The notes below the pieces were generated by a model. That model saw only the letters and a program-made list of their open reading frames with translations, made no database searches and was not told the origin of the DNA. Source: an uncultured Faecalibacterium sp. (GTDB taxonomy: Bacteria > Bacillota > Clostridia > Christensenellales > CAG-917). From it: a stretch of 64,000 nucleotides of DNA. Shown one piece after another: positions 17,675 to 53,932 of this stretch. The translations under genes were made by a program, and so were the position numbers. Every line of letters starts with the position of its first letter. The stretch's first letter is position 1. The stretch covers positions 2,127 through 66,126 of the forward strand of contig CAZBVO010000001.1 in assembly GCA_964495385.1 (NCBI GenBank). Reading direction: 5' to 3'.

Positions 17675-19498
17675 CTACCTCCCGGACGTCTGATTTTTTC
17701 TTATAAGTTGTTGGTATTTCTTTATTTCTTCGGCGATTGCCGTCTTTTTGCCGTCGTCGGCAGTCGAATACTCGGCCAGCAATCCCTTGACGATTTTGTT
17801 GTAATGTTCCTTTTTCAGTTTGTAAACGCAGTCGCCGTAAACACGCTTTGCCGACAAGTCGTCCATGGCGCCGAAATCGCCGTGAATGATTTCCAAAATG
17901 TCGTCGGTTCGCTCCATAAAGTCAAACAGCATGCCCGGAACGGGCGCCGAACCCGATTCGTCGGCAACTTTAAGATAGTCGTAAACTTCTTTGTGCGGAC
18001 CGAACACAAACCAATCCTTCTCGACTTCCGACAGCTTTGCAAACGGTTTTGCGTAAAGCAGGCATTTTAAAACAAATTCTGCCGACTGCATATACGGTCC
18101 CGTCGGTTTGTCCTCTGTAGGCTTGTCCGCTTCGTCCGAAATTTTGAGCGGCTGTTTAGGCGGCTCCTCGCGTTTTGCGGACACAAGTTCCAGTTCGCCG
18201 GAAAAATATTTTCTGAGCTGTTCGGCAGGTATTCTGCTCTTTTCGGAAACCACCCCGAAGTAAACCTCACGTTCGGCAGGGTTCGACAAAGTTTTCAGAA
18301 CTTCTATCGCACCCGTGGCATATTTTGCCCTTCCGTTTGCCGACGCCATGTTGCAACCGTTTTCAACCAGTTTGAGTTTGTAGTCGGTCAGAGGCAAAGC
18401 CTTTTCCATAAGGTCGAAAAAGCCCTTTTGACCAAGTTTGTTGGCAACGTCGTCGGGATCCATTCCGTCCGTCAGCGTTACGACAAAAATCTCCAACCCC
18501 GCCTTTTCCAAAACTTCCAAACTTTTTGCGGCGGCATTCTGCCCGGCTCCGTCGCCGTCATAGCAGACGTAAACTCGGTCGGAAAGATACTTAAGCTCTC
18601 GGGCTTGTCCGTCACAAAGTGCGGTGCCCATGCCGGCAACGGCATTTGCTATGCCCACCTTGTTCAGGCTTATTACGTCCATGTATCCTTCGACGATGAT
18701 AACTTCGCCGATTCCCGATTTTTGACGCTGCTTTTTGGCTATGTTGATGCCGAACAACGTTTTGTTTTTTTCAAATACAGGCGTGTTTGTGGTGTTTCGA
18801 TACTTTGCCACGCCGTCCTTTTTTTCAAGTATTCTGCCGCCGAAAGCAACCACTTTGTCGCTGCGGTTTATTATCGGCACGATAAGCCTGTCGGCCAATG
18901 CGTCGTAAAGCGAACCGTTTTTGTTTTTTGTTCCGACGCCCGACTCCAAAATCTCCCTGTCGCTAAAGCCCTTGGACCGCAAATAGTCGATGACGGAATT
19001 GAAATCCTTGCTGTAGCCGAGACCAAAACGAACCACTACGTCGGACGGAATGCGCCTCTTTGCCAAATAGTCCCTCGCCTTTTTGCCCACCTGAGGATCG
19101 GCAAGATTGCGATAATAATGCCCCGCCGCTTCTTTTAAAGCTTCGTACAGTCTGTCGCGTTTTTTCTTTTCGTTCATTATGGCTTCGCTTTGTTCGGTTT
19201 CCGGAACTTGCATGCCTGCCGCATCGGCAAGCAATTTTACCGCCTCCGGGAAGCCGACGTTTTCCATTTCCTGCACGAATTTAACTACGTCGCCGCCGAC
19301 GTGACAACCGAAACAATAGTAAAAACCCTCCCTCTGGTTCACCGTGAACGAAGGAGTTTTTTCGTGATGAAACGGACAGCATCCCCAATATCTTCCGCCC
19401 TTGTAGTCCAATCGAACGTAGCGAGAAACAACGGAGACGATGTCGTTTTTCGATTTAAGTTCGGCCATCCAATCTAAAGGATATCCTTCCCTTGCCAT
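17675..19498 (-). CDS. dnaG: DNA primase
   Basis: Zinc finger [12 protein letters not shown]...CFGC and a Toprim EGYMDV motif. The start is set at MAREGYP (ATG 19496-19498) with a GAGGTG RBS. The track start at 19576 lacks an RBS. Confidence 0.93.
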
Positions 19499-27397: not shown

Positions 27398-28513
27398 TTA
27401 GCCGACGTCTATGCGCATTTCGGCCTCGACTACGGCACGAACGACATATCCGTCTTGTGTCTTTTTAATTTCCGTCCTGCCCCCTCGCACGGTTGCCGAC
27501 GGAGGGACTTGACTTATCGCAAGAGCGGTTGCCTGACTTTCAAGCTGCTCTCTTACCGTTTCGAAACCGTATTTCGGCAAACGGTATTCCGTTTCCCTAA
27601 ATTCGACGGTAACGTATTCGTACGGCAAAAAAATGCCGACTGTTCTTTTTTTGACAACGGTGTCGTAGTTTTCAAATTCCGGCTTGAAATCGAAACCGTT
27701 GAAGCCAAAAAAATTCAAATAGGTTTTTTTGACACTGCGACCGGTGTAGCACAGCTGCTTTTGATCGGAAAAATATCCGACTTCCGCCGTAAAATAGCAA
27801 ATGCCGTACACTTCGCCCGAAGCCGCACAGGCAATTTTTTCGTCCCCAACCAAAGTGTAGCCGCCGATAAGCAAATCGCCCGTTTTTACCGCGCGTCCGC
27901 TTTCGCACTCGGCAGTTCCGGACCAAACGATCACCCTTGTGACCAAAGCGTTTTTTAAAGACCGTATTTCCGCCTTGTCGAAATCGAAAAAAGTTTCGCC
28001 GTCCAAACTCTCGGCAAGTTTAACGTCAAGTCGGTTGCCTGTTTTTTTGACGGATGCAAACGACACCTTTTCAATGCCGGCCACCAACGCGTCTTCCATT
28101 TGCTTTTCCGAAGCGATGATGCGCCCCGAAAGGTCGATGCCTGCTTTTTTTAGCGTCTGCCTGACTTCGTATTCCGTCACCGACGGAGCATCGACGGCAA
28201 CTTTAAAAACAAAACCGTCCGAAAACAACACAAAGGCAACATACGCCACAACCGCAAACAAAACGCCGCCCGATTTGATGCGCCTGAAAATTCGGTCCCG
28301 AAAACTTTCGTACTCCACCGATTTGTAATTATAACACATTCTGTCAAATAAAGCAATTATATTTGACGACTGTTTTTTTAAGCAATAAACAAGCAAACCC
28401 CGCCCGCATTTTTCGGCCCGTTCGACAAAAATACCCTCGGCAATAAGTTTTGACAAAATTCGTCCGTGATTGGGTTCGTCGATCAAAAAACAGCTCAGTC
28501 TTTTAGTCGTCAT
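27398..28513 (-). CDS. yqfD: sporulation protein YqfD (stage IV-type)
   Basis: About 370 aa with a single central TM segment and the YqfD-like layout. It immediately follows yqfC. The start is set at MTTKRL (ATG 28511-28513) after a G-rich RBS, overlapping yqfC by 11 nt. Confidence 0.75.
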   Translation of the reverse strand: MTTKRLSCFLIDEPNHGRILSKLIAEGIFVERAEKCGRGLLVYCLKKQSSNIIALFDRMCYNYKSVEYESFRDRIFRRIKSGGVLFAVVAYVAFVLFSDGFVFKVAVDAPSVTEYEVRQTLKKAGIDLSGRIIASEKQMEDALVAGIEKVSFASVKKTGNRLDVKLAESLDGETFFDFDKAEIRSLKNALVTRVIVWSGTAECESGRAVKTGDLLIGGYTLVGDEKIACAASGEVYGICYFTAEVGYFSDQKQLCYTGRSVKKTYLNFFGFNGFDFKPEFENYDTVVKKRTVGIFLPYEYVTVEFRETEYRLPKYGFETVREQLESQATALAISQVPPSATVRGGRTEIKKTQDGYVVRAVVEAEMRIDVG

Positions 28514-28760
28514 ACCCCACCCCCGAAATTTCGCCCGATACGGTAAGGGCCGTAGAAGACAGCTGCCGAATAACCAAATTTTTGCCGCGAACGGCAATTA
28601 GTCCGTCGGGCAGTCTGATTTTCACCTCGTCGGGGCTAAACGACAAAACCCCTTTTTGCCCCTCAACCAACACCGCCGTCCGTCCGAACAGCGTCAGCCG
28701 ATACGGCACCAAATCGCATCCGAGTTTTTTGAAAATATCCGCAATTTTTTCTTCAAACAT
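28503..28760 (-). CDS. yqfC: sporulation protein YqfC (YabP family)
   Basis: 85-aa ORF of YabP/YqfC size with that family's beta-rich pattern (RLTLFGRTAVLVEG...LVIRQL). It is paired with yqfD. Confidence 0.75.
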   Translation of the reverse strand: MFEEKIADIFKKLGCDLVPYRLTLFGRTAVLVEGQKGVLSFSPDEVKIRLPDGLIAVRGKNLVIRQLSSTALTVSGEISGVGYDD

Positions 28761-41978: not shown

Positions 41979-42235
41979 ACGGCAGTGTCCTTTGTCGACG
42001 GTTTGGTTCTGCCGGATGCGATGCCGTGATTTTTCATTTCGTCCAAACTGTTTTGGATGTCTTCCAACTTTTCCTTAACGTCGGTGCTCTGCTTGAGGCT
42101 TGCCGACAGCGATTCGATGGTTTTGGTGTATTTAAGTTCTCTTGTTCGCCCGTCTTTCAGCTGATAGAAAAACAGAAACACAAACAAAGCCGCCCAAATT
42201 CCGTTTGCGGTTGCAAGCTTTAAAATTTCCGTCAA
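41975..42235 (-). CDS. BhlA/UviB-family holin-like peptide
   Basis: The N-terminal TM NGIWAALFVFLFFYQLK is followed by RE.KY and a coiled-coil tail, as in BhlA/UviB. The TTG start overlaps the upstream TGA (TTGA) and has no SD. Confidence 0.65.
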   Translation of the reverse strand: MTEILKLATANGIWAALFVFLFFYQLKDGRTRELKYTKTIESLSASLKQSTDVKEKLEDIQNSLDEMKNHGIASGRTKPSTKDTAV

Positions 42236-43260
42236 GTTATGCCGTAGCGGTCGGAGTTGTTTGCACGCTCTTTAAGCAACGATTTCAATTTGTCGTAGTA
42301 GTTTCCCAAATAGTATTTCATGTTTGCGCTCGACTCGAACGCCTGCAAAGCGATGTCGCTGTCGACCGTAAGGTAGTAGCGCAAAGCCAAATCGTAGCGT
42401 TTGGCATAGTTTTCCTGTTTTTCGCTCGAATAGCCGTATTTCTTTTCGTAAGTGGCCTGTTTTTCGGCAGCCTCGGCGGCCTTTTTTGCGCTGTCTGATT
42501 TGTAGTTTTCGATATCTTTCAACCTGTCGGCATCCAGCTGTGCCTGTTTTTTGGCGATATCGTTGTTTGCTTCGATTGCCTCGTTCGACAGTTTCAAGCG
42601 TTCTTCTTTAAGCTCGTCTATCCTTTCGGAAAGTTTTTTCGCATAATCCAAATCGAGGTCGGCAATACTTTTTTGTTTTTCCGTTTCGAGGCTACCGATT
42701 TCTTTTTCGACGTCCGAAATTTTTGCATTGTAAGTATTTACCAAATCTGCGGTTTTTTCGATGCCTGCCTTGTCGTAGCCGCCCAAAATTTCCGAAACGA
42801 TGCTGCTTCTGCCAAGACCTCGTTTCAGCATGTCGTCCGAAGCCGAACTTTTTGCCGAAGCCACGGCGTCTGCGGTTTCTTTTAAAGCCGCCGCCTTGTC
42901 CGTCTCGAGCTTTTGACCGTACTCGGCAAGCTGCTCGCCTTTGTTTTTGGTGTAATCCGAAAGGTTTTGAATCTCTTTGGCGTAGTCACCCGAAAGTTCC
43001 GACTCGGCCTTTAGTTGCAATTGTTCGTCCGTCGACGGAGTATATTCAACCTTTTCCAGCGTGATTTTCGGGAAAAGAGCATCATAATCCGGCTCGGCGG
43101 ACTGATTTTTGGATTCGAGCTGTTGTTCGAGTTGTTTCAGTGCGTCCACAAGTCCGCTGGTCGTTTCTCCCTCGATGGCCGCACCTGCACGTTGGGCCTC
43201 GTCGTCGGCCGCTTCCGATTTTGTTTTAAAAAGATCTTTAATATCATCCCAAATTGACAT
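42232..43260 (-). CDS. phage coiled-coil structural protein (needle/plug- or fibre-like candidate)
   Basis: 342 aa, mostly heptad-rich Ala/Lys/Glu sequence with a Tyr-rich C-terminal knob. It sits after the hub-size gene. The start is set at MSIWDD (ATG 43258-43260) with GGAGG 6 nt upstream. Confidence 0.5.
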   Translation of the reverse strand: MSIWDDIKDLFKTKSEAADDEAQRAGAAIEGETTSGLVDALKQLEQQLESKNQSAEPDYDALFPKITLEKVEYTPSTDEQLQLKAESELSGDYAKEIQNLSDYTKNKGEQLAEYGQKLETDKAAALKETADAVASAKSSASDDMLKRGLGRSSIVSEILGGYDKAGIEKTADLVNTYNAKISDVEKEIGSLETEKQKSIADLDLDYAKKLSERIDELKEERLKLSNEAIEANNDIAKKQAQLDADRLKDIENYKSDSAKKAAEAAEKQATYEKKYGYSSEKQENYAKRYDLALRYYLTVDSDIALQAFESSANMKYYLGNYYDKLKSLLKERANNSDRYGIT

Positions 43261-43369
43261 TTCCATCCTCCGTTTGTTGTAAAAGTTTGATTTTGTTTTC
43301 CAAAACGGCAACTCTGCGTTCCAATCTTTCGACCGCCGCAAGAAGCCCTTCGATTCTAATGTCCGTCAT
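43244..43369 (-). CDS. unannotated 41-aa leucine-zipper-like ORF (MTDIRIEGLLAAVERLERRVAVLENKIKLLQQTEDGNVNLG)
   Basis: Its ATG (43367-43369) overlaps the TGA of the 488-aa gene (ATGA). Its TGA (43244-43246) lies 17 nt inside the next gene. The heptad pattern of L/V/I is clean. It fills an otherwise empty 105-nt gap. Confidence 0.5.
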   Translation of the reverse strand: MTDIRIEGLLAAVERLERRVAVLENKIKLLQQTEDGNVNLG

Positions 43370-44832
43370 GCCAAATCCGCCTCCACCGTAATTGCCGACA
43401 CAAGCGGATCTTTTTTGTCGGTATCAACGGCAAATCCCACGGTTTTGCCTTTTTTGTTGACAACTATTTTCTTCGGTTCCGTGCCGCCTTTGACAAAATA
43501 AGTTTTGCTTTTTCCGTCCAAAGTCACCGTAAAGTTCAAATCCGTCGAAGTGCTTACGTTCACGGTTCTGACGGTCTTGGTTTTATCGGCACGCCCGAGG
43601 TCGGTTTGCGCGCTTTCCCAATGTTTTGGAAGCAGCGTCGAAAACAGCTTTCCCGATTCCGACATCATTCCGATATCGTGCGAATGCTCGCCCCTGAAAA
43701 ACACCAGCATCTCGCTTATGTGCAAGCATTCGACGGAAACAAGGCCTTTTACGTCCGCCCCTCTCAATATGTCGGTATCGCCCGTTTTAAGGTTGATGCG
43801 AACGACGCAATTGTTCGTGCTTCCGTGGTCGGTTTCGGACAAAATTTCTTTTTCGTCCGCGCGCAGGCGGCAAGCAAGATAATAATGCCCCTTAACGTAT
43901 GCTCCCCTTGCTTCGGTGCGATCGCCGTAAAACAAATTTTCAATTTTAGACGCAATATGGGTGAGCGTATAACCGTTAAACGAAAACAGCCCTTCGTCGG
44001 TCAAAAACACTATTCGGTCGCCGCACAGAGCGATGGTGTCGGCAATGATTCTGGATGCGGAAGCGTAAATTTTCGACACCGAGTAATTCTCTTGCGAACC
44101 GTACGCCGTAAGCCTGACAATGCCGTAATCCCTAAAAACGTAAACGTGGTCCAAAAAACTGACGGCCTTTATGACTCTGCCTCCGTCGTCGTCAAAGTTG
44201 ATAAAGCCGCCCTCTTCAAGCGACGTGTTCCAGTTGGACGGATCGAAGTCGTCCGAAAACCACAGGCTGTTCGATTCGCCGGCAACGGTGGCGTAAATGC
44301 GCTCGTAATGCACGCACATGCTTGTAATGCTGGGGGCGTTTTGCGCATACGAAATGCTTTCGCCGTCATAGATATACAGTCCGCCTCCCTTGCCCGCAAC
44401 AATCAAAACGTCCTTGCCGTTGAAGCGGTAGTTCACACTGCAATCGTCGCCGGTAACTGCAATGCCGTCGATTTTGTCAAACGTACCCGTGCTCCAACAA
44501 GGGGCAACGTAATAACTTCCCGTATTTGTCCTAACAACAATTTTATCGTCTCTTTTTGACTCGGTAAAATTATATTTTCGGTAAAAGTGCAAATTTTCGA
44601 TTTTTTCGTTTTCGGGCAAAGCCGGCAAATAATGCCTGAATTTTTTGTCCGTCAACAGCCCCAATTCCGCCTTATCTATCCCTATTTTGGCTCTCAAAGC
44701 TCCGCCTGAAAAAGTAAAATTGTAAGTGTTCGGGCTGAAATTCGGTGCCAAAAGCGAAGCGGCCGTCGAGGCGTCAACACCTTTAAACGGCGATATTCTC
44801 AATCTTACCCGACTTACTTTGGTGCCTCTCAT
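43366..44832 (-). CDS. phage structural protein, tail-hub size and position (P22 gp10-like candidate)
   Basis: 488 aa and beta-rich. The segment SLWFSDDFDPSNW...GRVIKAVSFLDHVYVFRDYGIVRL resembles what I recall of the P22 gp10 'stabilisation protein'. The ATG at 44830-44832 follows GGAGGTG and overlaps the upstream TGA. Confidence 0.45.
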   Translation of the reverse strand: MRGTKVSRVRLRISPFKGVDASTAASLLAPNFSPNTYNFTFSGGALRAKIGIDKAELGLLTDKKFRHYLPALPENEKIENLHFYRKYNFTESKRDDKIVVRTNTGSYYVAPCWSTGTFDKIDGIAVTGDDCSVNYRFNGKDVLIVAGKGGGLYIYDGESISYAQNAPSITSMCVHYERIYATVAGESNSLWFSDDFDPSNWNTSLEEGGFINFDDDGGRVIKAVSFLDHVYVFRDYGIVRLTAYGSQENYSVSKIYASASRIIADTIALCGDRIVFLTDEGLFSFNGYTLTHIASKIENLFYGDRTEARGAYVKGHYYLACRLRADEKEILSETDHGSTNNCVVRINLKTGDTDILRGADVKGLVSVECLHISEMLVFFRGEHSHDIGMMSESGKLFSTLLPKHWESAQTDLGRADKTKTVRTVNVSTSTDLNFTVTLDGKSKTYFVKGGTEPKKIVVNKKGKTVGFAVDTDKKDPLVSAITVEADLA

Positions 44833-45371
44833 TGCGGCCACCTCCTGCTTTTTACAAACAGCCTGATGCTTTTGTTTTTCAGGTATTTAAGGCCGTCGGT
44901 GAAACGTTTGTATGCCGCCGCCGCTTCGGTAGGCATATTTTCGGCATAGCAAAATTCGGCCGCAACACCCTCGGCGACAAGCCATTTTGCAAGACGTTTA
45001 TCCTCGATTTCGCCGTCCAAAGTCAAATCGTCCGCAAGGTAAGCGTATTCCACTGCGGCCTCGCCGTCAAAAGTCGATTCGACGTAGTTTGCTCTCATCT
45101 TAAAGCATTTCGTTTCGCCGTGCGATTTGACCGAAACTATGTAAAGCAAAGGCTTTGTCAGTTCGTCGTAGCGCAACACTCCTTCCGTAAATCGGACGTC
45201 CTCCACGGTCGTCAACGGCAAGTATTCCGTTTCTATTTGCTGATAAACGAGGTTCAAGCACTTCAATGCTTTTTCAACCAACGCATTTTCTTCGGAGGTC
45301 ATCTCCTCAAAATCGATGTCGCCGTAACCGAGTTTAAACAATGCGGCGGCGATTATTTCTTTAACAGTCAT
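44829..45371 (-). CDS. phage head-tail adaptor-size protein
   Basis: 180 aa with an AGGAGG RBS. It lies between the capsid and hub-size genes, where podovirus adaptor (gp4-type) genes sit. I recognised no motif. Confidence 0.4.
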   Translation of the reverse strand: MTVKEIIAAALFKLGYGDIDFEEMTSEENALVEKALKCLNLVYQQIETEYLPLTTVEDVRFTEGVLRYDELTKPLLYIVSVKSHGETKCFKMRANYVESTFDGEAAVEYAYLADDLTLDGEIEDKRLAKWLVAEGVAAEFCYAENMPTEAAAAYKRFTDGLKYLKNKSIRLFVKSRRWPQ

Positions 45372-45380
45372 ACAGTCCTC

Positions 45381-45767
45381 CTATAGTTCGTCGTACAAAG
45401 GAACTTCGGCCCCGCCGTTTTCGAGATAACTTACCAGATTTTTAAGCTTATATTCCCTTTCGTCCCTAGCCGCCTCGCGCCGATTTTCGGCAAGGCGTTC
45501 GTTTGAGCGGTCAATTTCTCCGATAAGGTTTTCGGCATTTTCGGGAGACGTTTGCAAAAAGTAAGTCAAGCTTCTTCCGTCCAATTCTTCAAACGGAAGC
45601 ACCGCACGCCTCTCGTCGCCCATATATACTTCAAAGCGGTTTTTTTCGCGGTTGAAAAAAACTTTCAGCCGCGAATCTATGCCCTTAAATCGGTCCGCTA
45701 TGTCAAAAACGTCCCGACGTATTTCAACCAATTTTCCGTTCAAAAGGTCTCTTCTCAAAAACGACAC
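45381..45767 (-). CDS. phage hypothetical protein (128 aa)
   Basis: GTG start with a GGAGGA RBS. It is the first gene after the major capsid gene. The C-terminal half is charged. I recognised no motif. Confidence 0.4.
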   Translation of the reverse strand: MSFLRRDLLNGKLVEIRRDVFDIADRFKGIDSRLKVFFNREKNRFEVYMGDERRAVLPFEELDGRSLTYFLQTSPENAENLIGEIDRSNERLAENRREAARDEREYKLKNLVSYLENGGAEVPLYDEL

Positions 45768-45793
45768 GGCCGTTTCCTCCTACAATTTATTTG

Positions 45794-46975
45794 CTAAGCG
45801 GTTATGCCGCAAAGTTTGATTTGACCGCTCGGTCTTTCGCAAAGCAAGTCCGCATACTTAACCAAAGTCGCATAATAGGTCGGAGTGCCTGCCATTTGAT
45901 GAAGCACACTGCCGCCCTCGCCCTCGATCCAACGCCAATCGCAAAGCTGATGCAGCTTAAAGTCGTCGGTGTTAAGCATATACATGGTTCCGTCCGCAAC
46001 AAATCTGTCGGCCACCATAGGGATGCCGCTGTAGCTTATGGCTTTGAAGCCGCCGTCAACGTTCATAACGTCGATGTTGGTTGCCTTAGCGGTGACGGTT
46101 TCGATGTATTTGCGACGCACGTCGTAGCTGGCGGAAATGAAATTGATTTCGCTGCCGGAGGCGATTTCCGCTTCGTCGATGGCATTTTGCATCACGTCGA
46201 TAGACAGCGTGCCGCAATCGGATTTAACGTACGGTTTGAGGAAATCGTAATCCGCTCTGTTCAAGCCGTAAAGAGTTTCGCTGTCGCCGAAAATCGCTTC
46301 CAAACCGGTCAGTTCGGCGTCCTTGCTGTTTTGAACGTAAACGGTGCTGCCTGCGGCAAAAGCCGAGCTCGGCACGACGGAAATTCTGATTCTCTGTCCT
46401 GCCTTGTCGATGCCGACGATGCGTTTGTTCTTGCCTGCGGCGGTAATCGTGCCGGAAGCGGTGGCAATATCCACGGTCATGCCCAAAACGAATTTGGAAA
46501 CGTCGTCCACTTTGATGTAGTCGTTGGCGGAACTGTCGGACACGTCTTTTGCCACAACAGTCGCGAGTTTGCCGCTGCCGTCGCCGTAAAGCATACGTCC
46601 GAAGTTCAGTCTGCTTGCTTTAAGCAAGCCGTCCATTTCGGCGTTCAAAAGGTTGATGAATGCGCCGCCGTCGGTCTGAGAAGCACGCAATGCCTTGTCG
46701 GAAATTTCAATTTTTCCGAAAAAGTTTTTAAGCGAAAGTTTAAACTGTTCGTAACCGTTGCCGCCGGCAGTCGGAAGGTTTCCGGTTTCGCTTCCTGCGC
46801 CCACGCCGCCGTTTACGCCGTAAGTGCAAAGTTTGACTATTTCCTTACCTGCAACATCGGCGGAAGTCTGCTCGATTTTTGCAAGAAGCGGATTGATTTT
46901 GCTGTTAAGCTGATCGGTTATAACCGAAAGATAAAAAGATTTGAGTGCCTTTTCGGCGGTTTGAAAATTGATCAT
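45794..46975 (-). CDS. phage major capsid protein (HK97-fold type)
   Basis: 393 aa, preceded by the scaffold gene and by a GGAGA RBS. The Gly/Ala-rich sequence, with FGKIEISDKALRAS and GRMLYGDGSG-type segments, resembles major capsid families. Confidence 0.75.
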   Translation of the reverse strand: MINFQTAEKALKSFYLSVITDQLNSKINPLLAKIEQTSADVAGKEIVKLCTYGVNGGVGAGSETGNLPTAGGNGYEQFKLSLKNFFGKIEISDKALRASQTDGGAFINLLNAEMDGLLKASRLNFGRMLYGDGSGKLATVVAKDVSDSSANDYIKVDDVSKFVLGMTVDIATASGTITAAGKNKRIVGIDKAGQRIRISVVPSSAFAAGSTVYVQNSKDAELTGLEAIFGDSETLYGLNRADYDFLKPYVKSDCGTLSIDVMQNAIDEAEIASGSEINFISASYDVRRKYIETVTAKATNIDVMNVDGGFKAISYSGIPMVADRFVADGTMYMLNTDDFKLHQLCDWRWIEGEGGSVLHQMAGTPTYYATLVKYADLLCERPSGQIKLCGITA

Positions 46976-47004
46976 TTTTTTCTCCTTTAAATTTTATTGT
47001 GACA

Positions 47005-47610
47005 TTACTTAAACATATCTTCCGCCATTTGCTTAGCCTCACGAAGCGACTTCGGCTTTTTTGGCGGAGTTATGATCGTGCGTCCGCTGTCACCCACGGT
47101 TTTAGGATTTCTGTTTGCGCTTTTTGCGTCAAAAAATCTTTCGGCGCAGGCGGCGACGACGTCCTTGTTCGACAATACGTAGTCTTCCAAAAATCCTTCA
47201 CTGTTCAAAATATCTTCGGCAGAACGGTATTTTGGCGCAAGCAGCTGTCCCAAAGCACACCAAAGTGCCGCTTCGTCCTCGACGTCCACCCCCTCAAACG
47301 ATAGGGCAATTTCGTCTTGAATCGGCAACAGATTTGGATACTTCGATACCGTTTCGGCCACTGCCGTTTGCGTCTTGATTTTGCCTTCCTCTTTCAGGAG
47401 ATTTGCTTTATTTAAGTCGTCAATTTGCTTTTCAAGGGTTTTAAGTCGCTGACTACGACGTGTAAACTCCTTTTCCAGCGCACTGTAGGCCGCATAAAGT
47501 TCGTCCTTGTTGGAAAATTTTCCGATTGCTTCCTCTTTTTCGGCGGTCGGATTAACCTCTTTGCCGTTTTCGGTCTCGACTGCTTCGTTTTCGGAAATTT
47601 GATCTTTCAT
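47005..47610 (-). CDS. phage scaffolding protein
   Basis: 201 aa, acidic and helical, with the ELYAAYSALEKEFTRRSQRLK motif common in scaffold (DUF4355-like) proteins. It lies between the portal and capsid genes. Confidence 0.65.
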   Translation of the reverse strand: MKDQISENEAVETENGKEVNPTAEKEEAIGKFSNKDELYAAYSALEKEFTRRSQRLKTLEKQIDDLNKANLLKEEGKIKTQTAVAETVSKYPNLLPIQDEIALSFEGVDVEDEAALWCALGQLLAPKYRSAEDILNSEGFLEDYVLSNKDVVAACAERFFDAKSANRNPKTVGDSGRTIITPPKKPKSLREAKQMAEDMFK

Positions 47611-47621
47611 TGTCGTTCCTC

Positions 47622-49484
47622 CTAAATATTTTCCGTTGATTTAATCATGGTCGCAAGTTGTCCGTGCTGTTCGATATGCTCGGTAATTTTGCGCTTAACT
47701 TCGCTGTCGCCGTCATATTCTTGCGACAGAATAAATTTCGTATGTTCGGCGATATGGATGCTGTGTTCGTCCGTTTTGTCCGGCTCGACGTCGGTTCCGT
47801 CGGCCATTTTCAAATTTTCTCTCATGGCCTTTTTGATGTTCAATTCTTCGATGTCTTTGCTGTGTTCCCAGTTTCCGAAGCCCAAAATCTCCAACACTCT
47901 GGCCTTGTTTCTCGGCGAAACCGAGCCGTTTTCTTCGTTCAAAAGCCCCATGCTCAAAATCTGCATAACCATGCTTCTTCTCGAAGCGGCAGTGTCGGAC
48001 AAATCGTTTTCAGTGTCGAAAGCGATGTCGTCGGACGTGAGGTCGTTGCCGACAAAGTACACCAAATCCACCTCGCCGTTTTCGCCGGCAATACGTTTGA
48101 GTCGGCGCGTAGTGGCAAACTGTTTATACAAACGCAAAATCTGTTTGCCGATTTCCAAAATGGCGGCGCGCAAATTGTTTGCGGTTATGCTCATACGGGT
48201 ATCGTCCTGTTCGATTATGAGGCTTATCGCCGTACCGCTGGTTACGTTTTCGGGAACTCTGCTGTATCCCATAACTTCCGAAACGCCGGAAATCATGGTA
48301 AACTCTTGCAAAAGTCGGTCCTCCTCTCGCTGGAAATCCGCCGGAACGCTGCCGGCATTCATCATAACGGGAGGGTTACTACCCTGTCTGTAAACCAAAA
48401 TTTTGCCCGGACAAAGCCCTTCGTCCGCAAGCTGTTCGGTGTCCACGCTTCCGTCCTCAACCGCCAAAACACCCATGGCGATTCTGTTCAAAAATTCCAG
48501 TTTTCGGTTTTTGACCGCATTGTAAGCTCGCTGTACGGGGATACATCTTTCCACTATGCTTGCGCCGAAAAACGCACCGGCATTGTCCAGCGACACCTGC
48601 TTAACGAACGGATATTTCCGTTTTCCGCCCTCGCCGTTCATGTACGGAAGTTCGCCGTAGTGGCAAAGTTTGTCGCCTGCAACGATAATGTGTCTGCCGT
48701 TAGGAAACTCGGAAGTCGGCATTTCGAATTTTTCAATCACCACAACGGCATCTTCTTTTATTTCCGTATCCGCCGCCGGCACCGTCGAGCCGTAACCGAA
48801 TCCGCCGTGAACGGTCATATTTTCCATGTTAAAAACGTTCACTCTTTGCGGTTCGGCCTTAACGCCCCAAATGTCTTCGACGTCTTTTACCGAGTAGGCC
48901 TTAACGTGCATAACGGAAGGTTGTTTATCCAAATCGCCGTCCAAAGTTTCGGGATAAATTTCAAACGGCGGCACAACCATAACCGAAACGTCGCCGTCGG
49001 TTGCCGTTCGGCCTTCGAAAGAATATTTCGGTCCCTTGTCTCCGTCCCAAACCACCTTGTAAAACACCGTTCCGCAAATTTCGCTCCAATAGTTTGCCGC
49101 CGAAAGAAGATTCGGAAGCTTGTTTTCGGCAATAATGCTGTTTAATATTTGCGTGCTGAGTTTTGCGGCCGAAACGTCTTGTTCGTCGGTGGTCAGCGGA
49201 CGCACCGTAACGCCGCTACGCACTCTCGACAGCTTTGCAAGCCTTGTCTCGACTATAGGCGCAATGTGGTTAAAAACAGACCTTTTCTGCCAATAAAACT
49301 GTTTGTTTTCCTCGTCCAATTCGCCCCGAGCGTTGATTTCGCTGAATTGATTGCCTGCCATAAAATTCATATTCAATCGCCATGCCTGTTCGGTTGTTCG
49401 CCTTGCATGACGGCGTTTTTCGAAATCGGCCCTGACGTCGGCAACCAACTGTTCCTGAAATACGTTTGTAAGTTTGTTATTCAT
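47622..49484 (-). CDS. phage portal protein
   Basis: 620 aa, immediately downstream of the terminase. Size and position are typical of a portal. The acidic C-terminus is consistent with that call. Confidence 0.75.
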   Translation of the reverse strand: MNNKLTNVFQEQLVADVRADFEKRRHARRTTEQAWRLNMNFMAGNQFSEINARGELDEENKQFYWQKRSVFNHIAPIVETRLAKLSRVRSGVTVRPLTTDEQDVSAAKLSTQILNSIIAENKLPNLLSAANYWSEICGTVFYKVVWDGDKGPKYSFEGRTATDGDVSVMVVPPFEIYPETLDGDLDKQPSVMHVKAYSVKDVEDIWGVKAEPQRVNVFNMENMTVHGGFGYGSTVPAADTEIKEDAVVVIEKFEMPTSEFPNGRHIIVAGDKLCHYGELPYMNGEGGKRKYPFVKQVSLDNAGAFFGASIVERCIPVQRAYNAVKNRKLEFLNRIAMGVLAVEDGSVDTEQLADEGLCPGKILVYRQGSNPPVMMNAGSVPADFQREEDRLLQEFTMISGVSEVMGYSRVPENVTSGTAISLIIEQDDTRMSITANNLRAAILEIGKQILRLYKQFATTRRLKRIAGENGEVDLVYFVGNDLTSDDIAFDTENDLSDTAASRRSMVMQILSMGLLNEENGSVSPRNKARVLEILGFGNWEHSKDIEELNIKKAMRENLKMADGTDVEPDKTDEHSIHIAEHTKFILSQEYDGDSEVKRKITEHIEQHGQLATMIKSTENI

Positions 49485-49773
49485 TTTGTCTCCTTTTTTC
49501 CTCGCTTTCTTTTAGCGCTGAAAGCAATCGCTGTTTCTCTTCCAAAAGGCGGCTTTCGGACAGTTCGCCCAGTTCCGACTGTCCGCCCGACAACTCCGCA
49601 ACCGATTTAATGGCCACGGTATCGGGCGGATAGTATTTTTTGGTAACCTTTTTTTTCAAAAGCACAAAATCGCCGTCGGCATTGGTGCCGTACTCTTCCA
49701 CTATTTCGTCGGCGGTAAAGCCCGTCGCCTTTTTGGTCAAAGCAGCCTTTAATTTTTTTGGTAAGCCGTTCAT
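49477..49773 (-). CDS. small phage protein between TerL and portal (98 aa)
   Basis: It is coupled by an ATGA overlap to TerL and overlaps the portal start by 8 nt. The segment KKVTKKYYPPDTVAIK resembles a motif I associate with some small-terminase proteins, but this is a weak call. Confidence 0.4.
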   Translation of the reverse strand: MNGLPKKLKAALTKKATGFTADEIVEEYGTNADGDFVLLKKKVTKKYYPPDTVAIKSVAELSGGQSELGELSESRLLEEKQRLLSALKESEEKRRQNE

Positions 49774-51203
49774 TTTTTGTTCCTTTTGTTAAGTTTAATA
49801 AGACATTCGATATCTCGCTGGATTTCGGTTTTTTGCAATTTCGAGGCGTGCGGCACGGGATCGGACATAACAAAATACCTGAGTTCGTCCAAAGCGTGAT
49901 CGTCGATTTTTTTCGGTCTGTCGCCCTCCGCCCACGCATAGCCTTTAAGTTCGCGAATAAGGTTCACGCAGGAAGAAAAAATTGCGATTTTCGGCGGCCT
50001 TGCGGCAAAAAGATTTTTCAGTTTTGCAATTCCCGAAAACAAATCCTTGTTGACTTTTGCGTTCACGATTATGCCTTTTTCGCAAAACAGTTCCGACACG
50101 CTTTTTTTGGATGCAAGCGTTTTTTGGTTGGCCGCGCTGTCTATCAACGCATGAAGTCGGCCTTTCGAGTCACGCTTCCAGCCGATGGCGTCGGCGATTT
50201 TTTTGATTTTTTCGACGTGGTAATCTATTTCCCTTCCCGCTTCGTAGTGTTCCGCCACGACGTAAATCACTCCGTCACCGTCAACTGCGTAAAAGTGGCA
50301 GCTGAGCGGATTATTTAAGCCGGGATCGACGGATATATCCGCCTGCCATTCCTCGGGAACGTCAAAAGGATCGACAACGTGAACGTTGACGTCAAATTCC
50401 GGATAAACAAGGCCGTTCAAGCGTTTAAACCGTCCGTATCTTCTGGTTTCTTTCACGTCGTCCGACAGCGAATCGGACAGCGTTTTAACCTCGTTTTCGT
50501 CCAAAAATGGATTGTCCGCCCACTCCATCTGCTCGTACCAAACCTCGGGATTTCCGCCTTGATTCAAATAAATCTCGTCGTACACCCAGGTCTGGCCTTT
50601 AAGCGGAGTCATCGTTCCGAAAAGGTCGCCTTTTTTGTCCAGAACACGCATTTGACATTCCCTGTAAACGTCCTCCGGCGGCTCCTCGTCGAACCACACG
50701 AAATCCAGCGACGCACCCTGAAATTTTTCTCGCCCCTGATCGGCGGACTTAAAGCCCAACGTCGACCTGCCTCCAAACACGTTTTTCACCACGATTTTGT
50801 CGATAACGCCCGTTTCGGGGCTGTCCTTTTTGCCCGAAAGCATCACGATATCCTCAATCCAATCGGCCGACAGATACGACATTATCTTTTTTTGCGCCAC
50901 CTCCCGTTGCACCTCGTAACTCACCGAAACGGCCCATCCCTCGACGTTGTCTCTGTTTTGCCGATAGGGATGAATGCCTCTCAGCATCCAAACCGTCTCC
51001 ACCGCTCCGCATTCCGTTTTACCGCTTCTGTTGCCGCCGAAAACCCACCTGTTCCGTTTTTGACATTTGTGAAAATCCAGCTGTTTTTGATGCTTGATTT
51101 GCCCGGAATTATATTGTTGCAAACGTTTTTTACCCTTTCGTTTTTCCAGCTCGGCCTCTATTTCCAAAATGCGTATAATCCTTTCTTTTTCCGAATTTGC
51201 CAT
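49770..51203 (-). CDS. terL: phage terminase large subunit
   Basis: 477 aa with Walker A GGNRSGKTE, Walker B LDFVWFDEEP and a C-terminal RNase-H-like nuclease region. RBS is AGGAG. Confidence 0.88.
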   Translation of the reverse strand: MANSEKERIIRILEIEAELEKRKGKKRLQQYNSGQIKHQKQLDFHKCQKRNRWVFGGNRSGKTECGAVETVWMLRGIHPYRQNRDNVEGWAVSVSYEVQREVAQKKIMSYLSADWIEDIVMLSGKKDSPETGVIDKIVVKNVFGGRSTLGFKSADQGREKFQGASLDFVWFDEEPPEDVYRECQMRVLDKKGDLFGTMTPLKGQTWVYDEIYLNQGGNPEVWYEQMEWADNPFLDENEVKTLSDSLSDDVKETRRYGRFKRLNGLVYPEFDVNVHVVDPFDVPEEWQADISVDPGLNNPLSCHFYAVDGDGVIYVVAEHYEAGREIDYHVEKIKKIADAIGWKRDSKGRLHALIDSAANQKTLASKKSVSELFCEKGIIVNAKVNKDLFSGIAKLKNLFAARPPKIAIFSSCVNLIRELKGYAWAEGDRPKKIDDHALDELRYFVMSDPVPHASKLQKTEIQRDIECLIKLNKRNKK

Positions 51204-51280
51204 AATACTCCTAAAAATGCTTTATTTTTGCAGACATTTGGTATATAATTTAATGTGTATAAGTATTTAATGAGGTAACT

Positions 51281-52324
51281 ATGAAGCGCTTAATTTTGCT
51301 TACCGCAATTTTGTCACTCTTTGTTGCGGCAATCATACCTACAACCGAAGCCGTTGCCGTCGCCGACTCGACGACGCTTGTAACCGGAGAGTATCTTAAA
51401 GTTGACGAATCCGTCACCTTAATTTCGGCAAACTTCAGCAAAAACGAGATTTTTACCGTTCCTGCATCCTACTACGTTCAGTATCTCGGCTATGACGAAG
51501 ACAACGAAATTCATCTGTTCAAGTATATGGACGTCGAAGGCACTCTTTCGGACAGCGACGTTCAAAAGCTTTCCAAGCAAACCGACAGCGACTTTCAAGA
51601 TGCCGAAACCGACCGCAATCCTAATTTGGATCTCACCGTCGTAACCGACATCACCGACGTAAGCATCGTCGCCATAAAAAGCACCAAAAACGGCAAGAAA
51701 TCCGAAGTCGCCGTAGCCGATTTTTCGGCAGGCACCGCCTTCACTTTCTACGGATTTTTAAATCACGACGCCACCGATTATGCCTTTGTTAAGGGCGCAG
51801 ACGGAAGTTACTGGTACATCCCTACCTCCGTTTTGCTGGTGACCTCGGTTGAAGGAAGCACCGTAAACGCCGAAAGGCTGTCGTCCTACACTCTGCCGCA
51901 ACACTACTATTCCCGTCCGCCGGTCGAAATCATCGATCCGTCCGACAACCAAAACAGCGGCGGCACAAGCGGTTCGAACAATCTTTTGAACGTCGACAAC
52001 AACGTGCTTCGCATCATGCTTATCATCGGAATAGTTCTGCCGGCAGTCATCATAATGTTTTTGCTTTTCAAGCCGGTTGCCAAAAAGAAAGGCGGCTACG
52101 ACTACGACCGCAACAGAAGTTACGATCAAGGCCCGTCCCCTTACGACCAACCGCGCAGCCGTTATCGCGATGACGATTATTACGACCGCAGGTATCGCCG
52201 AGACGACCGCTACGACAACCGCGACCGCCGTGACGACCGCAACTACCGTGACGACCGCGATTACCGCGATTATCGCGACTACCGTGACGACCGTGATCGC
52301 CGCGACTACGACGACCGCTATTGA
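51281..52324 (+). CDS. signal-peptide/TM protein with SH3-like ectodomain repeats and an Arg-Asp-Tyr repeat cytoplasmic tail
   Basis: It has a signal peptide MKRLILLTAILSLFVAAIIPTTEA, a ~230-aa ectodomain, a TM segment LRIMLIIGIVLPAVIIMFLLF and an 84-aa tail (…RYRRDDRYDNRDRRDDRNYRDDRDYRDYRDYRDDRDRRDYDDRY). RBS is GAGGT. It is the only plus-strand gene in the island. Confidence 0.7.
   Translation: MKRLILLTAILSLFVAAIIPTTEAVAVADSTTLVTGEYLKVDESVTLISANFSKNEIFTVPASYYVQYLGYDEDNEIHLFKYMDVEGTLSDSDVQKLSKQTDSDFQDAETDRNPNLDLTVVTDITDVSIVAIKSTKNGKKSEVAVADFSAGTAFTFYGFLNHDATDYAFVKGADGSYWYIPTSVLLVTSVEGSTVNAERLSSYTLPQHYYSRPPVEIIDPSDNQNSGGTSGSNNLLNVDNNVLRIMLIIGIVLPAVIIMFLLFKPVAKKKGGYDYDRNRSYDQGPSPYDQPRSRYRDDDYYDRRYRRDDRYDNRDRRDDRNYRDDRDYRDYRDYRDDRDRRDYDDRY
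52141..52321 (+). repeat. imperfect tandem CGN-GAC/TAC coding repeats (RD/Y low-complexity tail)
   Basis: Runs of cgcgac/cgtgac/cgcgat/taccgc units. The absence of stop codons in several frames produces four overlapping spurious track ORFs here. Confidence 0.85.
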
Positions 52325-52329
52325 AACCC

Positions 52330-52357
52330 ACCGCACCGTTTCGGTGCGGTTTTATTT
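52330..52357. terminator. terminator between the convergent RD-tail gene and the island regulator gene
   Basis: ACCGCACCG (52330-52338) / CGGTGCGGT (52342-52350), followed by TTTATTTG on the plus strand. It abuts the regulator's stop codon at 52352. Confidence 0.65.
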
Positions 52358-52852
52358 GCCCGAAATTTCGGCGAGTTTCTCCTCCGAGCGGCGTTTTTCA
52401 AGTTCGTAAAGAGGCATCGACTTAAACTCGTCTTTTAGTGCCGCAAATTCTCTGCTTTCCGCCAAAAGCGTTGCCAGCTGTCTGGTTGCGGCGTCGTAAC
52501 GTCTGAAACAATTTCGAAGCGACCAGCCCGCCTTGTCGGCGATATCGGCAAATTGCAAATGTTCGACAAATCTTTGCGTCAACAGTTTTTCGTCCTCGGT
52601 TTTTGACAGGATTTTTTCGACGACCGAACGAAAACGGAGGTAGGTTTCCTTTGTTTCAATCAGATCGATGATTTTGTTGCATTGGTCAAGCGTCGACGAG
52701 CCGCGCTTATAGTTGAAGCTTGCCAACGCCGATTTCAAAATCTGTCTTTCGATGGCTCTGATTGCGCCTGCCGTTTTTGCGTAAACACGCATAACGATCT
52801 TTGCTTCTTCTGTTTCCCAAACGGTCGGGCAAAGTTGCGAATTGTTTGTCAT
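52352..52852 (-). CDS. phage late-gene activator candidate (RinA/ArpU/sigma-70 region-4-like)
   Basis: 166 aa. The segment LLTQRFVEHLQFADIADKAGWSLRNCFRRYDAATRQLATLL has the look of a sigma region-4 HTH, as in RinA/DUF1492-type phage activators. It is the first gene of the island. RBS is GGAGA. Confidence 0.5.
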   Translation of the reverse strand: MTNNSQLCPTVWETEEAKIVMRVYAKTAGAIRAIERQILKSALASFNYKRGSSTLDQCNKIIDLIETKETYLRFRSVVEKILSKTEDEKLLTQRFVEHLQFADIADKAGWSLRNCFRRYDAATRQLATLLAESREFAALKDEFKSMPLYELEKRRSEEKLAEISGK

Positions 52853-52885
52853 AAGTGGTTCTCCTTTCCTTCGAATTTATCGTCT

Positions 52886-52938
52886 TTCTAAAAATTCAAC
52901 CCACCCGAAATTGCGGGAAGGTTGAATTTATTTTTGCC
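52886..52938. terminator. compound hairpin/terminator in the 5' leader of the island regulator gene
   Basis: AATTCAACC (52893-52901) .. CCCG..CGGG .. GGTTGAATT (52920-52928). TTTAG follows on the minus strand and TATTTTTG follows on the plus strand. It lies between the predicted promoter and the ORF. Confidence 0.55.
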
Positions 52939-52969
52939 CGAATCGGGGCTTATGGGGTGCGATGTGCCT

Positions 52970-52999
52970 ATCTTAACGCCGAAAAACTGCATTTGTCAA
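52970..52999 (-). promoter_or_regulatory. candidate sigma-A promoter for the island regulator (TTGACA-18-TAAGAT)
   Basis: Complement of 52994-52999 is TTGACA. After an 18-nt spacer, the complement of 52970-52975 is TAAGAT. The -35 is embedded in TTTGTCAAA (52992-53000). Confidence 0.5.
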
Positions 53000-53049
53000 A
53001 CTTTTATGACATCAAACGGCAAGGCATATTTTGCAATATTTTGATTTCG

Positions 53050-53088
53050 TTTGTCGAATTTTAAAAGTACTTAAATATATTTGTCGAA
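53050..53088 (+). promoter_or_regulatory. two exact TTTGTCGAA motifs 30 bp apart (Spo0A 0A-box-like)
   Basis: TTTGTCGAA occurs at 53050-53058 and 53080-53088 in an AT-rich spacer upstream of the regulator promoter. The core TGTCGAA equals the classical 0A box. Confidence 0.4.
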
Positions 53089-53154
53089 ATATGTTGAAAT
53101 CAATACAAAATCCACAGAAATTATCAAATAAAACTGTAAAATAAATTTTTTTGA

Positions 53155-53188
53155 CACAAAAAATCGCAACGCCGTTTGCGTTGCGATT
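53155..53188 (-). terminator. rho-independent terminator after the rluA-family gene (right edge of the island)
   Basis: AATCGCAACGC (53162-53172) / GCGTTGCGATT (53178-53188), followed on the minus strand by TTTTTGTGTC. Confidence 0.7.
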
Positions 53189-53212
53189 CAAATTAAACTA
53201 TTTACCCCCGGC

Positions 53213-53932
53213 TTATGCTCTGCCGTCCGACAAAAATGTTTCGACGTTAAAATATTTCCAAGGTCTTTCGTCTTCAGGCGGATAAACTCTGAAAACCATC
53301 TGCGCGTCCTTCACCGGATGTTTAAACCTAAGCTCGGTGGCCCAAAGTGCGAGGTTGCAATTTGCCTTCGGCCTCGAGCCGGAGTACTTGACGTCCCCCA
53401 CAAGCGGATGACCTATGTGCGCCATTTGAACCCTTATCTGATGGCTTCTGCCCGTATCCAATTTTACCAAACAAAGGCTGATGCGGCTGCTTTCGTCGCT
53501 GCAAAGCAACTTGTAATCCAATTCCGCACGCTTCGCCCCTTCGGTCAGCATCGGCACGACGGACACGACGTTCGACGTTTCGTCCTTTTTCAAAAAGTTT
53601 GACAAATGTGCCTGCCTGTCCTTTGGAACTCCGTACACTACCGCCAGGTATTTTTTGTCGACTTCGCCGTCGGAAATTGCCTTGCAAAGTCTTGCGGCGG
53701 CTTTGGAGGTTTTTGCAAAAACCATAACTCCGCCCGTCGGACGGTCCAGCCTTTGAACCAGCCCCAAATAAGCCTCGCCCGGCTTTTGATAGGTTTCCTG
53801 CAAATATTGCTTCAACATCGAAAGCATATCCGGATCCTTGCTGCTGTCGGCCTGAACGGGAACATTCTGCGGCTTCACCACAACCAGAATGTGATTGTCT
53901 TCATAAACGATTTTAATGTCTTTGTAGTCCAT
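53213..53932 (-). CDS. RluA-family pseudouridine synthase
   Basis: 239 aa with VHRLDRPTGG-like (VQRLDRPTGGVMV) catalytic Asp motif and HQIRVQMAHIGHPLVGD. Confidence 0.88.
   Translation of the reverse strand: MDYKDIKIVYEDNHILVVVKPQNVPVQADSSKDPDMLSMLKQYLQETYQKPGEAYLGLVQRLDRPTGGVMVFAKTSKAAARLCKAISDGEVDKKYLAVVYGVPKDRQAHLSNFLKKDETSNVVSVVPMLTEGAKRAELDYKLLCSDESSRISLCLVKLDTGRSHQIRVQMAHIGHPLVGDVKYSGSRPKANCNLALWATELRFKHPVKDAQMVFRVYPPEDERPWKYFNVETFLSDGRA

Follow-up and report, generated by a model that had tools for sequence, protein, structure and literature searches.

In a 64,000-nt stretch of DNA from an uncultured Faecalibacterium sp. (contig CAZBVO010000001.1; this whole stretch is the window, abbreviated W in lists of loci, and window coordinates are positions in it), a small regulator gene stands at the head of a phage-derived capsid island. 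The regulatory region in front of it (52853-53212) carries two exact copies of TGTCGAA, the core of the 0A box recognized by the sporulation regulator Spo0A (PMC2731898, PMC3485338). Judged from its invariance in close relatives and its enrichment across divergent loci, this heptamer is a real, selected cis-element of the regulator promoter, and its match to the 0A box, first pointed out in an initial annotation of this DNA, holds family-wide. We have little doubt that the boxes are functional sites of some factor, and Spo0A is in our opinion the probable one. With slightly less confidence, we favor a model in which Spo0A-bound boxes, together with a leader terminator, control the regulator of a head-only island that resembles gene transfer agents (GTAs).

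0A-type boxes upstream of the regulator

The extended 0A consensus is TTTGTCRAA, and both copies of the heptamer (53052-53058 and 53082-53088, plus strand, the regulator being read on the minus strand) are embedded in its A/T flanks (about TTTGTCGAAA), each reading TTTGTCGAA. The proximal copy (53050-53058; between about -95 and -87 relative to the predicted start of transcription) is a single box without a tandem partner; the distal one (53080-53088) opens a tandem 0A-type site, TGTCGAA-ATA-TGTTGAA, which occupies 53080-53098 on the plus strand, or about -135 to -117. A further box with one mismatch, TTTGTCAAA (52992-53000, plus strand), coincides with the -35 hexamer TTGACA (52999-52994, minus strand). 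The two exact copies, the 30 bp between them and the box over the -35 hexamer lie precisely where the initial annotation had placed them. Since other -35 regions of the window (5956 and 20607) yield the same 9-mer as TTTGTCAAA, the box over the -35 hexamer carries little weight on its own.

The simplest alternative, namely that an AT-rich spacer has produced the motifs by chance, draws on the fact that some repeated 9-mer of any sequence turns up in 30% of 20,000 shuffles of the 360-nt spacer, and that TGTCGAA is over-represented in window coding DNA; TTTGTCGAA occurs 10 times in the whole window against 2.3 expected, with 8 of the 10 copies inside coding DNA. As 9-mer repeats are so common in shuffles, what sets the motif apart is which sequence it is and not that it is repeated: at least one TTTGTCGAA was obtained in 0.5% of the same shuffles and two or more in none. 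Moreover, the two boxes are the sole occurrences of TGTCGAA or TTTGTCGAA in the ~3.9 kb of window non-coding DNA defined by a curated gene map, so the motif is not equally dense in other AT-rich spacers, an outcome that the initial annotation had named as speaking against its own proposal. With the conservation, enrichment and density reported below, we consider the chance explanation effectively refuted.

Elsewhere in the window, one other tandem is found at one mismatch or less, a near-perfect TGTCGAA-CCC-TGCCGAA at 18272-18288 (minus strand), which is located inside dnaG, ~600 nt upstream of sigA.

Anatomy and conservation of the promoter region

The 360-nt spacer separates an rluA-type pseudouridine synthase gene (53213-53932; assigned from PF00849) from the 166-aa regulator open reading frame (ORF; 52352-52852), and its upstream edge is marked by the intrinsic terminator of the former (53161-53189, minus strand), a 12-bp stem followed by TTTTTT. 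On the minus strand, the -35 hexamer TTGACA is separated by an 18-nt spacer from the -10 hexamer TAAGAT (52975-52970), giving 10 of 12 consensus matches and a predicted transcription start near 52963, from which a leader of ~111 nt would extend to the ATG at 52852, preceded by a strong ribosome-binding site (RBS), AGGAAAGGAG (52870-52861, minus strand). This promoter had been proposed with exactly these coordinates, and it stands: in the two closest relatives (L001 and L007) the hexamers are either unchanged or improved (-10 TAATAT), and the design TTGACW-N18-TATAMT is found in most island lineages with an almost invariant 18-nt spacer. A genuine sigma-A (sigma-70-type) promoter is thus supported by its invariance in relatives and by the family-wide repetition of its design.

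A second element, TGTCATA (53005-53011, minus strand), lies 5 nt upstream of the -35 hexamer inside an invariant block, GTCATAAAAGTTTGACAAATG. The pattern TGWCAYA-N6-TTGAC is repeated across the island family, including lineages that have no 0A-type boxes, such that the full layout TG(T/A)CA(T/C)A-N6-TTGAC(A/T)-N18-TATA(A/C)T is seen in most related loci; the element could be an UP-like element, an operator half-site or an autoregulatory site. Several other candidates in the region were rejected: a promoter 3' of the leader hairpin (TTGAAT-N14-TAAATT) is wrongly spaced and lacks conservation, as does a single DnaA box (TGTGGATTT, near 53115), and a 59-aa ORF (53012-53191), which has its start within the rluA terminator and is likewise unconserved, was treated as spurious.

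The regulator has only three clusters of homologues, with 56-60% identity, and genome and metagenome scans with it matched solely the CAG:1138 species; one of the relatives is 'Faecalibacterium sp. CAG:1138' (GTDB genus CAG-1138, family CAG-917, order 4C28d-15). Their loci are syntenic with the window (ileS, methyltransferase, rluA, a cupin gene present in the relatives only, regulator, membrane protein, TerL). When the spacers of the window, L001 and L007 are aligned, conservation is lost outside five blocks, one of which, TTTCGACAAA, is the proximal box, and the 59 nt from the start of this box to the start of the -35 are identical in length in L001 and L007. The remaining blocks comprise GTCATAAAAGTTTGACAAATG, the -10 hexamer, the leader hairpin with its T-run, and the RBS; no conservation is seen from the -10 to the hairpin. 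Of the arrangement that the initial annotation wished to see conserved in orthologous islands, the proximal box is therefore invariant, but the alignment preserves neither the position of the distal box nor the 30-bp phasing. Instead of a conserved distal box, each of the three lineages has a tandem with 3-bp spacing: TGTCGAA-ATA-TGTTGAA in the window, TGTCGAA-ACT-TGTCGAG in L001 and TGTCGAA-ACT-TGTCGCA in L007.

Family-wide enrichment of the box

To look beyond the immediate relatives, wider-family loci were fetched by TerL homology alone, that is, independently of the motif, and 7-mers were counted without bias over the 300 nt that precede the regulator in each of 19 divergent loci, whose upstream regions share few 10-mers. 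The top 7-mer was TTCGACA, the reverse complement of TGTCGAA, which was present in 12 of the 19 loci against 0.35 expected (P about 5e-15) and ranked above the -35 word, the RBS and all other 7-mers. The enriched words TTTCGAC, TTCGACA, TCGACAA and CGACAAA assemble into TTTGTCGAAA. In a 13th locus (L015) the box is found in the opposite orientation as part of a tandem, TGTCGCA-ACT-TGTCGAA; a perfect box is absent from the remaining 6 of the 19. Box density amounts to 2.41 per kb upstream of regulators, compared with 0.08 in other non-ORF DNA (~30-fold) and 0.15 in ORFs.

Tandems of the 7+3+7 type occur in W, L001, L007, L015, L032 (ending in -ACT-TGTCAAG) and L033. The position of the box varies: about -90 and -120 in the window clade, about -90 in L042, about -65 in L015, within the -35/-10 spacer in L038, L043, L047, L050 and L051 (TTGACTtTTCGACA), and, probably within the leader, some 36 nt ahead of the start codon in L032 and L033. 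That the box is placed differently in each lineage points to selection for the motif rather than to inherited alignment.

Boxes of the LexA/SOS type (GAAC-N4-GTTC) were also observed near the regulator promoter in L015 (in the leader, at -42), L038 (-139) and L043 (-127), with one-mismatch versions in L047, L051, L068 and L033 and none in the window clade. In the window itself, a candidate LexA/Cheo box was dismissed because CGAAATATGTTGA is spaced by N3 and not N4, and no GAAC-N4-GTTC exists there at one mismatch or less. SOS and 0A-type inputs seem to be brought together in different island lineages.

Which protein binds the boxes?

Dimers of phosphorylated Spo0A (Spo0A~P) give footprints of 25-30 bp that include two boxes separated by 3 bp, and an imperfect TGTtGAA is bound in phage Nf (PMC2731898). 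The TGTCGAA specificity is the same for C. difficile Spo0A and hence holds from Bacillus to Clostridia, with A/T flanks also noted (PMC3485338), and Spo0A binds DNA through a domain unique to Firmicutes (PMC3533761). The tandems of the island family, with their same-orientation and often imperfect second box 3 bp away, match the dimer form seen at footprinted Spo0A sites. The gene itself was not located, as tblastn found no spo0A in the window or in loci L001-L096, and it is for this reason that we regard Spo0A as the probable, and not as the established, ligand.

Functional boxes could conceivably be read by another conserved host regulator, for example a response regulator that recognizes direct repeats spaced by one helical turn or a CtsR-like heptad-repeat binder, with the 0A likeness being coincidental. 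Many winged-helix response regulators typically read direct repeats with a period of 10 bp, and the heptads of the CtsR operator (A/GGTCAAA) are likewise repeated in a 7+3+7 arrangement; besides the failure to locate spo0A, some of the island hosts may be non-sporulating. However, the enrichment picks out TGTCGAA itself, flanked by TT...A as in the Spo0A consensus; this word differs from the CtsR heptad at two positions, and the TGTtGAA partner and 3-bp spacer match footprinted Spo0A sites, such that an unrelated factor would have to match all 7-9 positions of the best-known Firmicute motif. We therefore judge this explanation improbable, although it deserves to be kept in mind.

Far less probable still is that the boxes are autoregulatory sites through which the sigma-region-4-like regulator of the island feeds back on its own promoter. 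TCGACA is one mismatch away from the -35 hexamer read by region 4, the regulator carries a region-4-type helix-turn-helix (HTH), the boxes are specific to its promoter region, and at the two boxes a promoter scan gives promoter-like scores to TCGACA-N18-TAAAAT and TCGACA-N18-CAAAAT. Nevertheless, the box stays exact across the family while the regulators diverge down to 19-29% identity, the conserved motif upstream of TerL, which would be the expected target, carries no 0A-type box, and six lineages with the same gene arrangement have no box at all. The exactness of the box in the face of regulator divergence, together with the boxless TerL-upstream motif, favors a conserved host factor over autoregulation.

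With respect to the host, the initial annotation had drawn on yqfC and yqfD, which belong to the core sporulation gene set (PMC3533761). A full-length YqfD homologue is indeed present (27398-28597, minus strand; TIGR02876, E = 3.5e-27), but it scores 95 bits against a cutoff of 257, and the yqfC-like ORF just upstream of it (28598-28760, minus strand) was judged by eye only. We take these genes to indicate that sporulation genes are present but divergent in the host lineage. A literature search returned nothing useful on sporulation in order 4C28d-15, on DUF7934 or on the extended consensus string.

An IMG/VR scan recovered 80 Spo0A-domain loci (L097-L176), 0 of them on island contigs. Genes for the C-terminal DNA-binding domain of Spo0A were seen on many viral-classed IMG/VR contigs, several of them with ~60% identity and from a single metagenome; these could be host flanks or phage-borne Spo0A-like genes.

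Direction of control

Judged from the other lineages, repression of the regulator promoter is at least as likely as activation. Boxes that sit in the -35/-10 spacer or in the leader have repression geometries. Spo0A represses phage promoters of phi29 and Nf by promoter occlusion (PMC2731898), and roadblock repression is described at abrB and spo0A Pv (PMC12090719). In addition, the promoter is near consensus throughout the family, so there is no obvious need for an activator, which again fits repression.

The arrangement in the window clade, with strong upstream boxes and a weak box over the -35, nevertheless resembles the design of spoIIG. At that promoter, strong upstream Spo0A sites and a weak site over the -35 mediate activation by Spo0A. 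Activation of the island in the style of CtrA is thus an unproven analogy, and the geometry in other lineages suggests something nearer to Spo0A repression of phi29 than to CtrA activation of the GTA of Rhodobacter capsulatus (RcGTA).

A terminator-like hairpin in the leader

From about +35 to +74, downstream of the promoter and ahead of the RBS, the leader is predicted to fold into a terminator-like hairpin (52890-52929, minus strand), with the stem at 52929-52892 and a T5 run at 52894-52890. Its arms (52892-52910 and 52911-52929) form an 11 bp + 4 bp fold with a dG of -20.2 kcal/mol (z = -5.1), and it was flagged by a terminator scan. The initial annotation had described this hairpin with accurate coordinates. 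Stem and T-run are invariant in L001 and L007 save for one G-to-A change, which converts a U.G into a U-A pair and so keeps the pairing, and non-homologous hairpins with a U-tract are found at the same leader position in two unrelated lineages (L014 and L037). U-rich tracts had been claimed in both orientations; both are seen in the window, but only the sense T-run is conserved, the antisense tract being absent in L001, and a bidirectional terminator was for this reason rejected. In L001 (5893-5975) and L007 (4130-4215), though not in the window, the leader terminator is enclosed by a long-range stem of 9 bp (GCAGCGAU with AUUGCUGUG).

The 40 nt from the hairpin to the ATG contain no promoter-like hexamers, and hence, given the predicted promoter, the regulator mRNA must cross the hairpin. 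We read the hairpin as a leaky constitutive attenuator that would set a threshold for regulator expression. The antitermination suggested earlier did not find support: no alternative fold competes with the minimum free energy (MFE) fold as an antiterminator, and an Rfam scan of 52300-53300 (E <= 10) returned only noise, which argues against a riboswitch or T-box. Leader-peptide attenuation was discarded because the leader has no start codon, and ANTAR-type dual hexaloops because the loops read CGAUUC and CAAUUU and the first hairpin is missing in the relatives. No sensing mechanism, be it an antiterminator fold, leader peptide, known riboswitch, T-box or protein-binding motif, was thus found; an antiterminator may nevertheless act on the leader.

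Alternatively, the hairpin may not be an attenuator but a terminator or insulator of a short non-coding RNA, or an RNA stabilizing or processing element, in which case control would be exerted at initiation only. Such a role would be in line with the failure to find an antiterminator fold, leader peptide or Rfam match, with the invariance of a stem that shows no covariation, and with the scarcity of leader hairpins, most island lineages having none. Against it stand the promoterless 40 nt, owing to which the regulator mRNA crosses the hairpin, the conservation of the sense but not of the antisense T-run, and the non-homologous equivalents in L014 and L037. On these grounds we consider a non-attenuating role unlikely, if less so than a foreign ligand at the boxes, and continue with the attenuator.

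The regulator and the capsid island

The ORF that the initial annotation had taken for a regulator (52352-52852, minus strand; 166 aa, ATG at 52852) contains a sigma-70 region-4-like HTH and matches the transcriptional regulator/activator families phrog_36 (1.3e-5) and phrog_248 in PHROG, in agreement with that assignment. Sigma-factor region 4 (3hug, E = 3.5e-4) is matched by a profile in which the ORF product is combined with its positional homologues, and Sigma70_r4_2 and DUF1492 score above cutoff in the orthologous-position regulators of L037, L032 and L042; the window regulator alone gives only sub-threshold Pfam matches. With an HTH of the region-4 type and a gene placed immediately ahead of those for the terminase, the regulator shows the features of phage late activators of the RinA/ArpU/DUF1492 class. 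Its inferred target is a candidate late promoter in the TerL-upstream spacer (51204-51280, minus strand), where TAAATTATATACC...AAAAATAAAGC is conserved in W, L001, L007, L014 and L055.

The structural genes (42232-51203, minus strand) encode, in order, TerL, a 98-aa ORF, a P22-like portal, a 201-aa ORF and the major capsid protein (MCP), followed by proteins of 128, 180 and 491 aa and DUF7934. The MCP is of the podovirus type, NF033394 (capsid_maj_Podo) being its sole match at E <= 0.01. The island is flanked by murG and topoisomerase subunits on one side and by rluA and ileS on the other, and no integrase, replication, tail or lysis genes are in view between murG and rluA. As the structural genes are directly followed by murG and the topoisomerase genes, the island measures ~10.6 kb (42232-52852, minus strand) and is head-only, which bears out the earlier view that the regulator heads a structural-only phage cluster. 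Between the regulator and TerL, on the opposite strand, lies a gene for a 347-aa protein (51281-52324, plus strand) that has a hydrophobic segment at the N-terminus, a membrane segment at the C-terminus and a low-complexity tail rich in Arg, Asp and Tyr, and that matches no family; a counterpart of 239-360 aa occupies the same place in most islands examined.

The GC content of the island equals that of its flanks, the rest of the window is core chromosome (sigA, dnaG, era, ybeY, yqfD), and the same chromosomal site is used in three lineages. TerL homologues fall into more than 4,900 clusters (E < 1e-30) with an identity plateau of 64-69%, belong to uncultured Clostridia and reside on chromosomal contigs of up to 980 kb; the wider-family loci share the arrangement regulator, opposite-strand membrane protein, TerL. 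On gene content, this is a structural-only, vertically retained and ameliorated phage cluster, as in the GTA paradigm, and the island looks like a very widespread domesticated, GTA-like element.

A model for the control of the island

In the model that we propose, the housekeeping-type promoter TTGACA-N18-TAAGAT would start transcription near 52963, and dimers of Spo0A~P would bind the high-affinity boxes upstream, namely the tandem TGTCGAA-ATA-TGTTGAA and the single TTTGTCGAA, as well as the weak -35 box, thus tying expression of the island activator to the stationary-phase/sporulation state of the host. The hairpin at about +35 to +74 would probably halt most transcripts, keeping the basal level of the regulator low and providing a threshold or second checkpoint. 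The regulator produced by read-through would then turn on the separate conserved promoter ahead of the terminase gene. The analysis shows the sequence features, their conservation and the enrichment of TGTCGAA throughout the family, and from these we infer the identity of the binding protein, the direction of control, termination at the hairpin and the target promoter of the regulator.

Several of the findings weigh against this model. At the level of the boxes, these are the lack of conservation of the distal box and its 30-bp phasing, the six loci without a perfect box, and a near-consensus promoter with no obvious need for an activator. At the level of the host, spo0A was not found, YqfD remains below its family cutoff, and the lineage, the uncultured clostridial order 4C28d-15/CAG-917, may not be one that sporulates. 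As for the leader, a terminator is present in only three lineages and absent from most, the base of its stem consists of A-U pairs and its tract of only five U, and the searches for a competing antiterminator fold and for an Rfam family came back empty. The model remains our preferred one by virtue of the exactness, invariance and enrichment of the box and of the tandem form that it shares with footprinted sites.

A broader version, which we put forward only tentatively and would not bet on, holds that the whole island family, previously uncharacterized, is wired to host fate, the activator promoter being a hub that reads Spo0A~P and, in other lineages, LexA, with a leader terminator adding a threshold or feedback in the window clade. 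The master regulator of sporulation would then choose for the cell between capsids (and presumably lysis) and dormancy. In either version, the outcome is a concrete, testable regulatory model for a widespread island family related to reported GTA-like elements. Were Spo0A indeed to bind, the stationary-phase/sporulation decision of these uncultured gut anaerobes would be linked to particle production and to horizontal gene transfer. 0A boxes at the regulator promoter would then also serve as a simple sequence marker that predicts when such elements fire.

Comparison with known systems

With regard to mechanism, the island is most reminiscent of the Bacillus phages phi29 and Nf, whose early and late promoters carry 0A boxes and in which consensus TGTCGAA boxes are likewise found in a phage-derived regulatory region with an imperfect partner 3 bp away, including TGTtGAA, and overlap or flank sigma-A promoters (PMC2731898), so that the sporulation regulator of the host gates the phage program, as we propose for the island. 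Unlike these infecting lytic phages, ours is a chromosomal structural-only island of uncultured Clostridia, the gene under control encodes a sigma-like activator, and Spo0A binding is predicted. Among host genes, the window clade shares with spoIIG the strong upstream boxes and the weak -35 box; in contrast to the over-long spacer of spoIIG, its spacer is 18 nt with a consensus -35, and its boxes, at -90 and -120, lie farther from the core promoter. The leader boxes of L032 and L033 are closer to those of abrB and spo0A Pv (PMC12090719).

The leader, with a strong promoter followed by an intrinsic terminator within about 75 nt, calls to mind lambdoid late control, where a constitutive promoter, a short leader and a terminator are combined with the Q antiterminator, and the regulator calls to mind the RinA/ArpU-type late activators of Firmicute phages, in that a small sigma-region-4-like or DUF1492-type protein is encoded immediately upstream of the terminase genes. 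Here, however, the terminator precedes the regulator gene and not the structural genes, no antiterminator was identified, and most lineages have no terminator.

Conceptually, the nearest parallel is RcGTA, which is reportedly governed by CtrA together with GafA and produced in stationary phase. Both systems would place a host response regulator over a domesticated phage cluster by way of a dedicated small activator. They differ in phylum, regulator family and motif; several island lineages suggest repression, and the likeness of the island to a GTA lies in its gene content. Should Spo0A bind, the phi29-Spo0A and RcGTA-CtrA paradigms would be extended to a phylum-wide system.

As an element, the island is most similar to FpGTA of Faecalibacterium, a 10.5-kb, ten-ORF podovirus-like operon that is produced in late stationary phase (PMC12946183), with which it shares size, podovirus affinity, a gut Clostridia host and the order TerL, portal, scaffold-like protein, MCP and hypothetical proteins. 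The FpGTA MCP goes by the family name N4-gp56, and ours matches NF033394; with an architecture that resembles FpGTA I but another family name for its capsid protein, the island is only a possible member of the FpGTA family. That study reports that gut Clostridia commonly package host DNA in a GTA-like manner; it does not address the control of this packaging and describes no regulation for FpGTA (PMC12946183). What is new here is that the activator promoter of a capsid island so widespread among Clostridia carries a conserved 0A-type box, with putative SOS boxes added in other lineages and a predicted leader terminator in some. Taken together, we suggest that the closest precedents are Spo0A acting on phi29 and Nf for the mechanism, CtrA and GafA acting on RcGTA for the concept, and FpGTA for the element itself.

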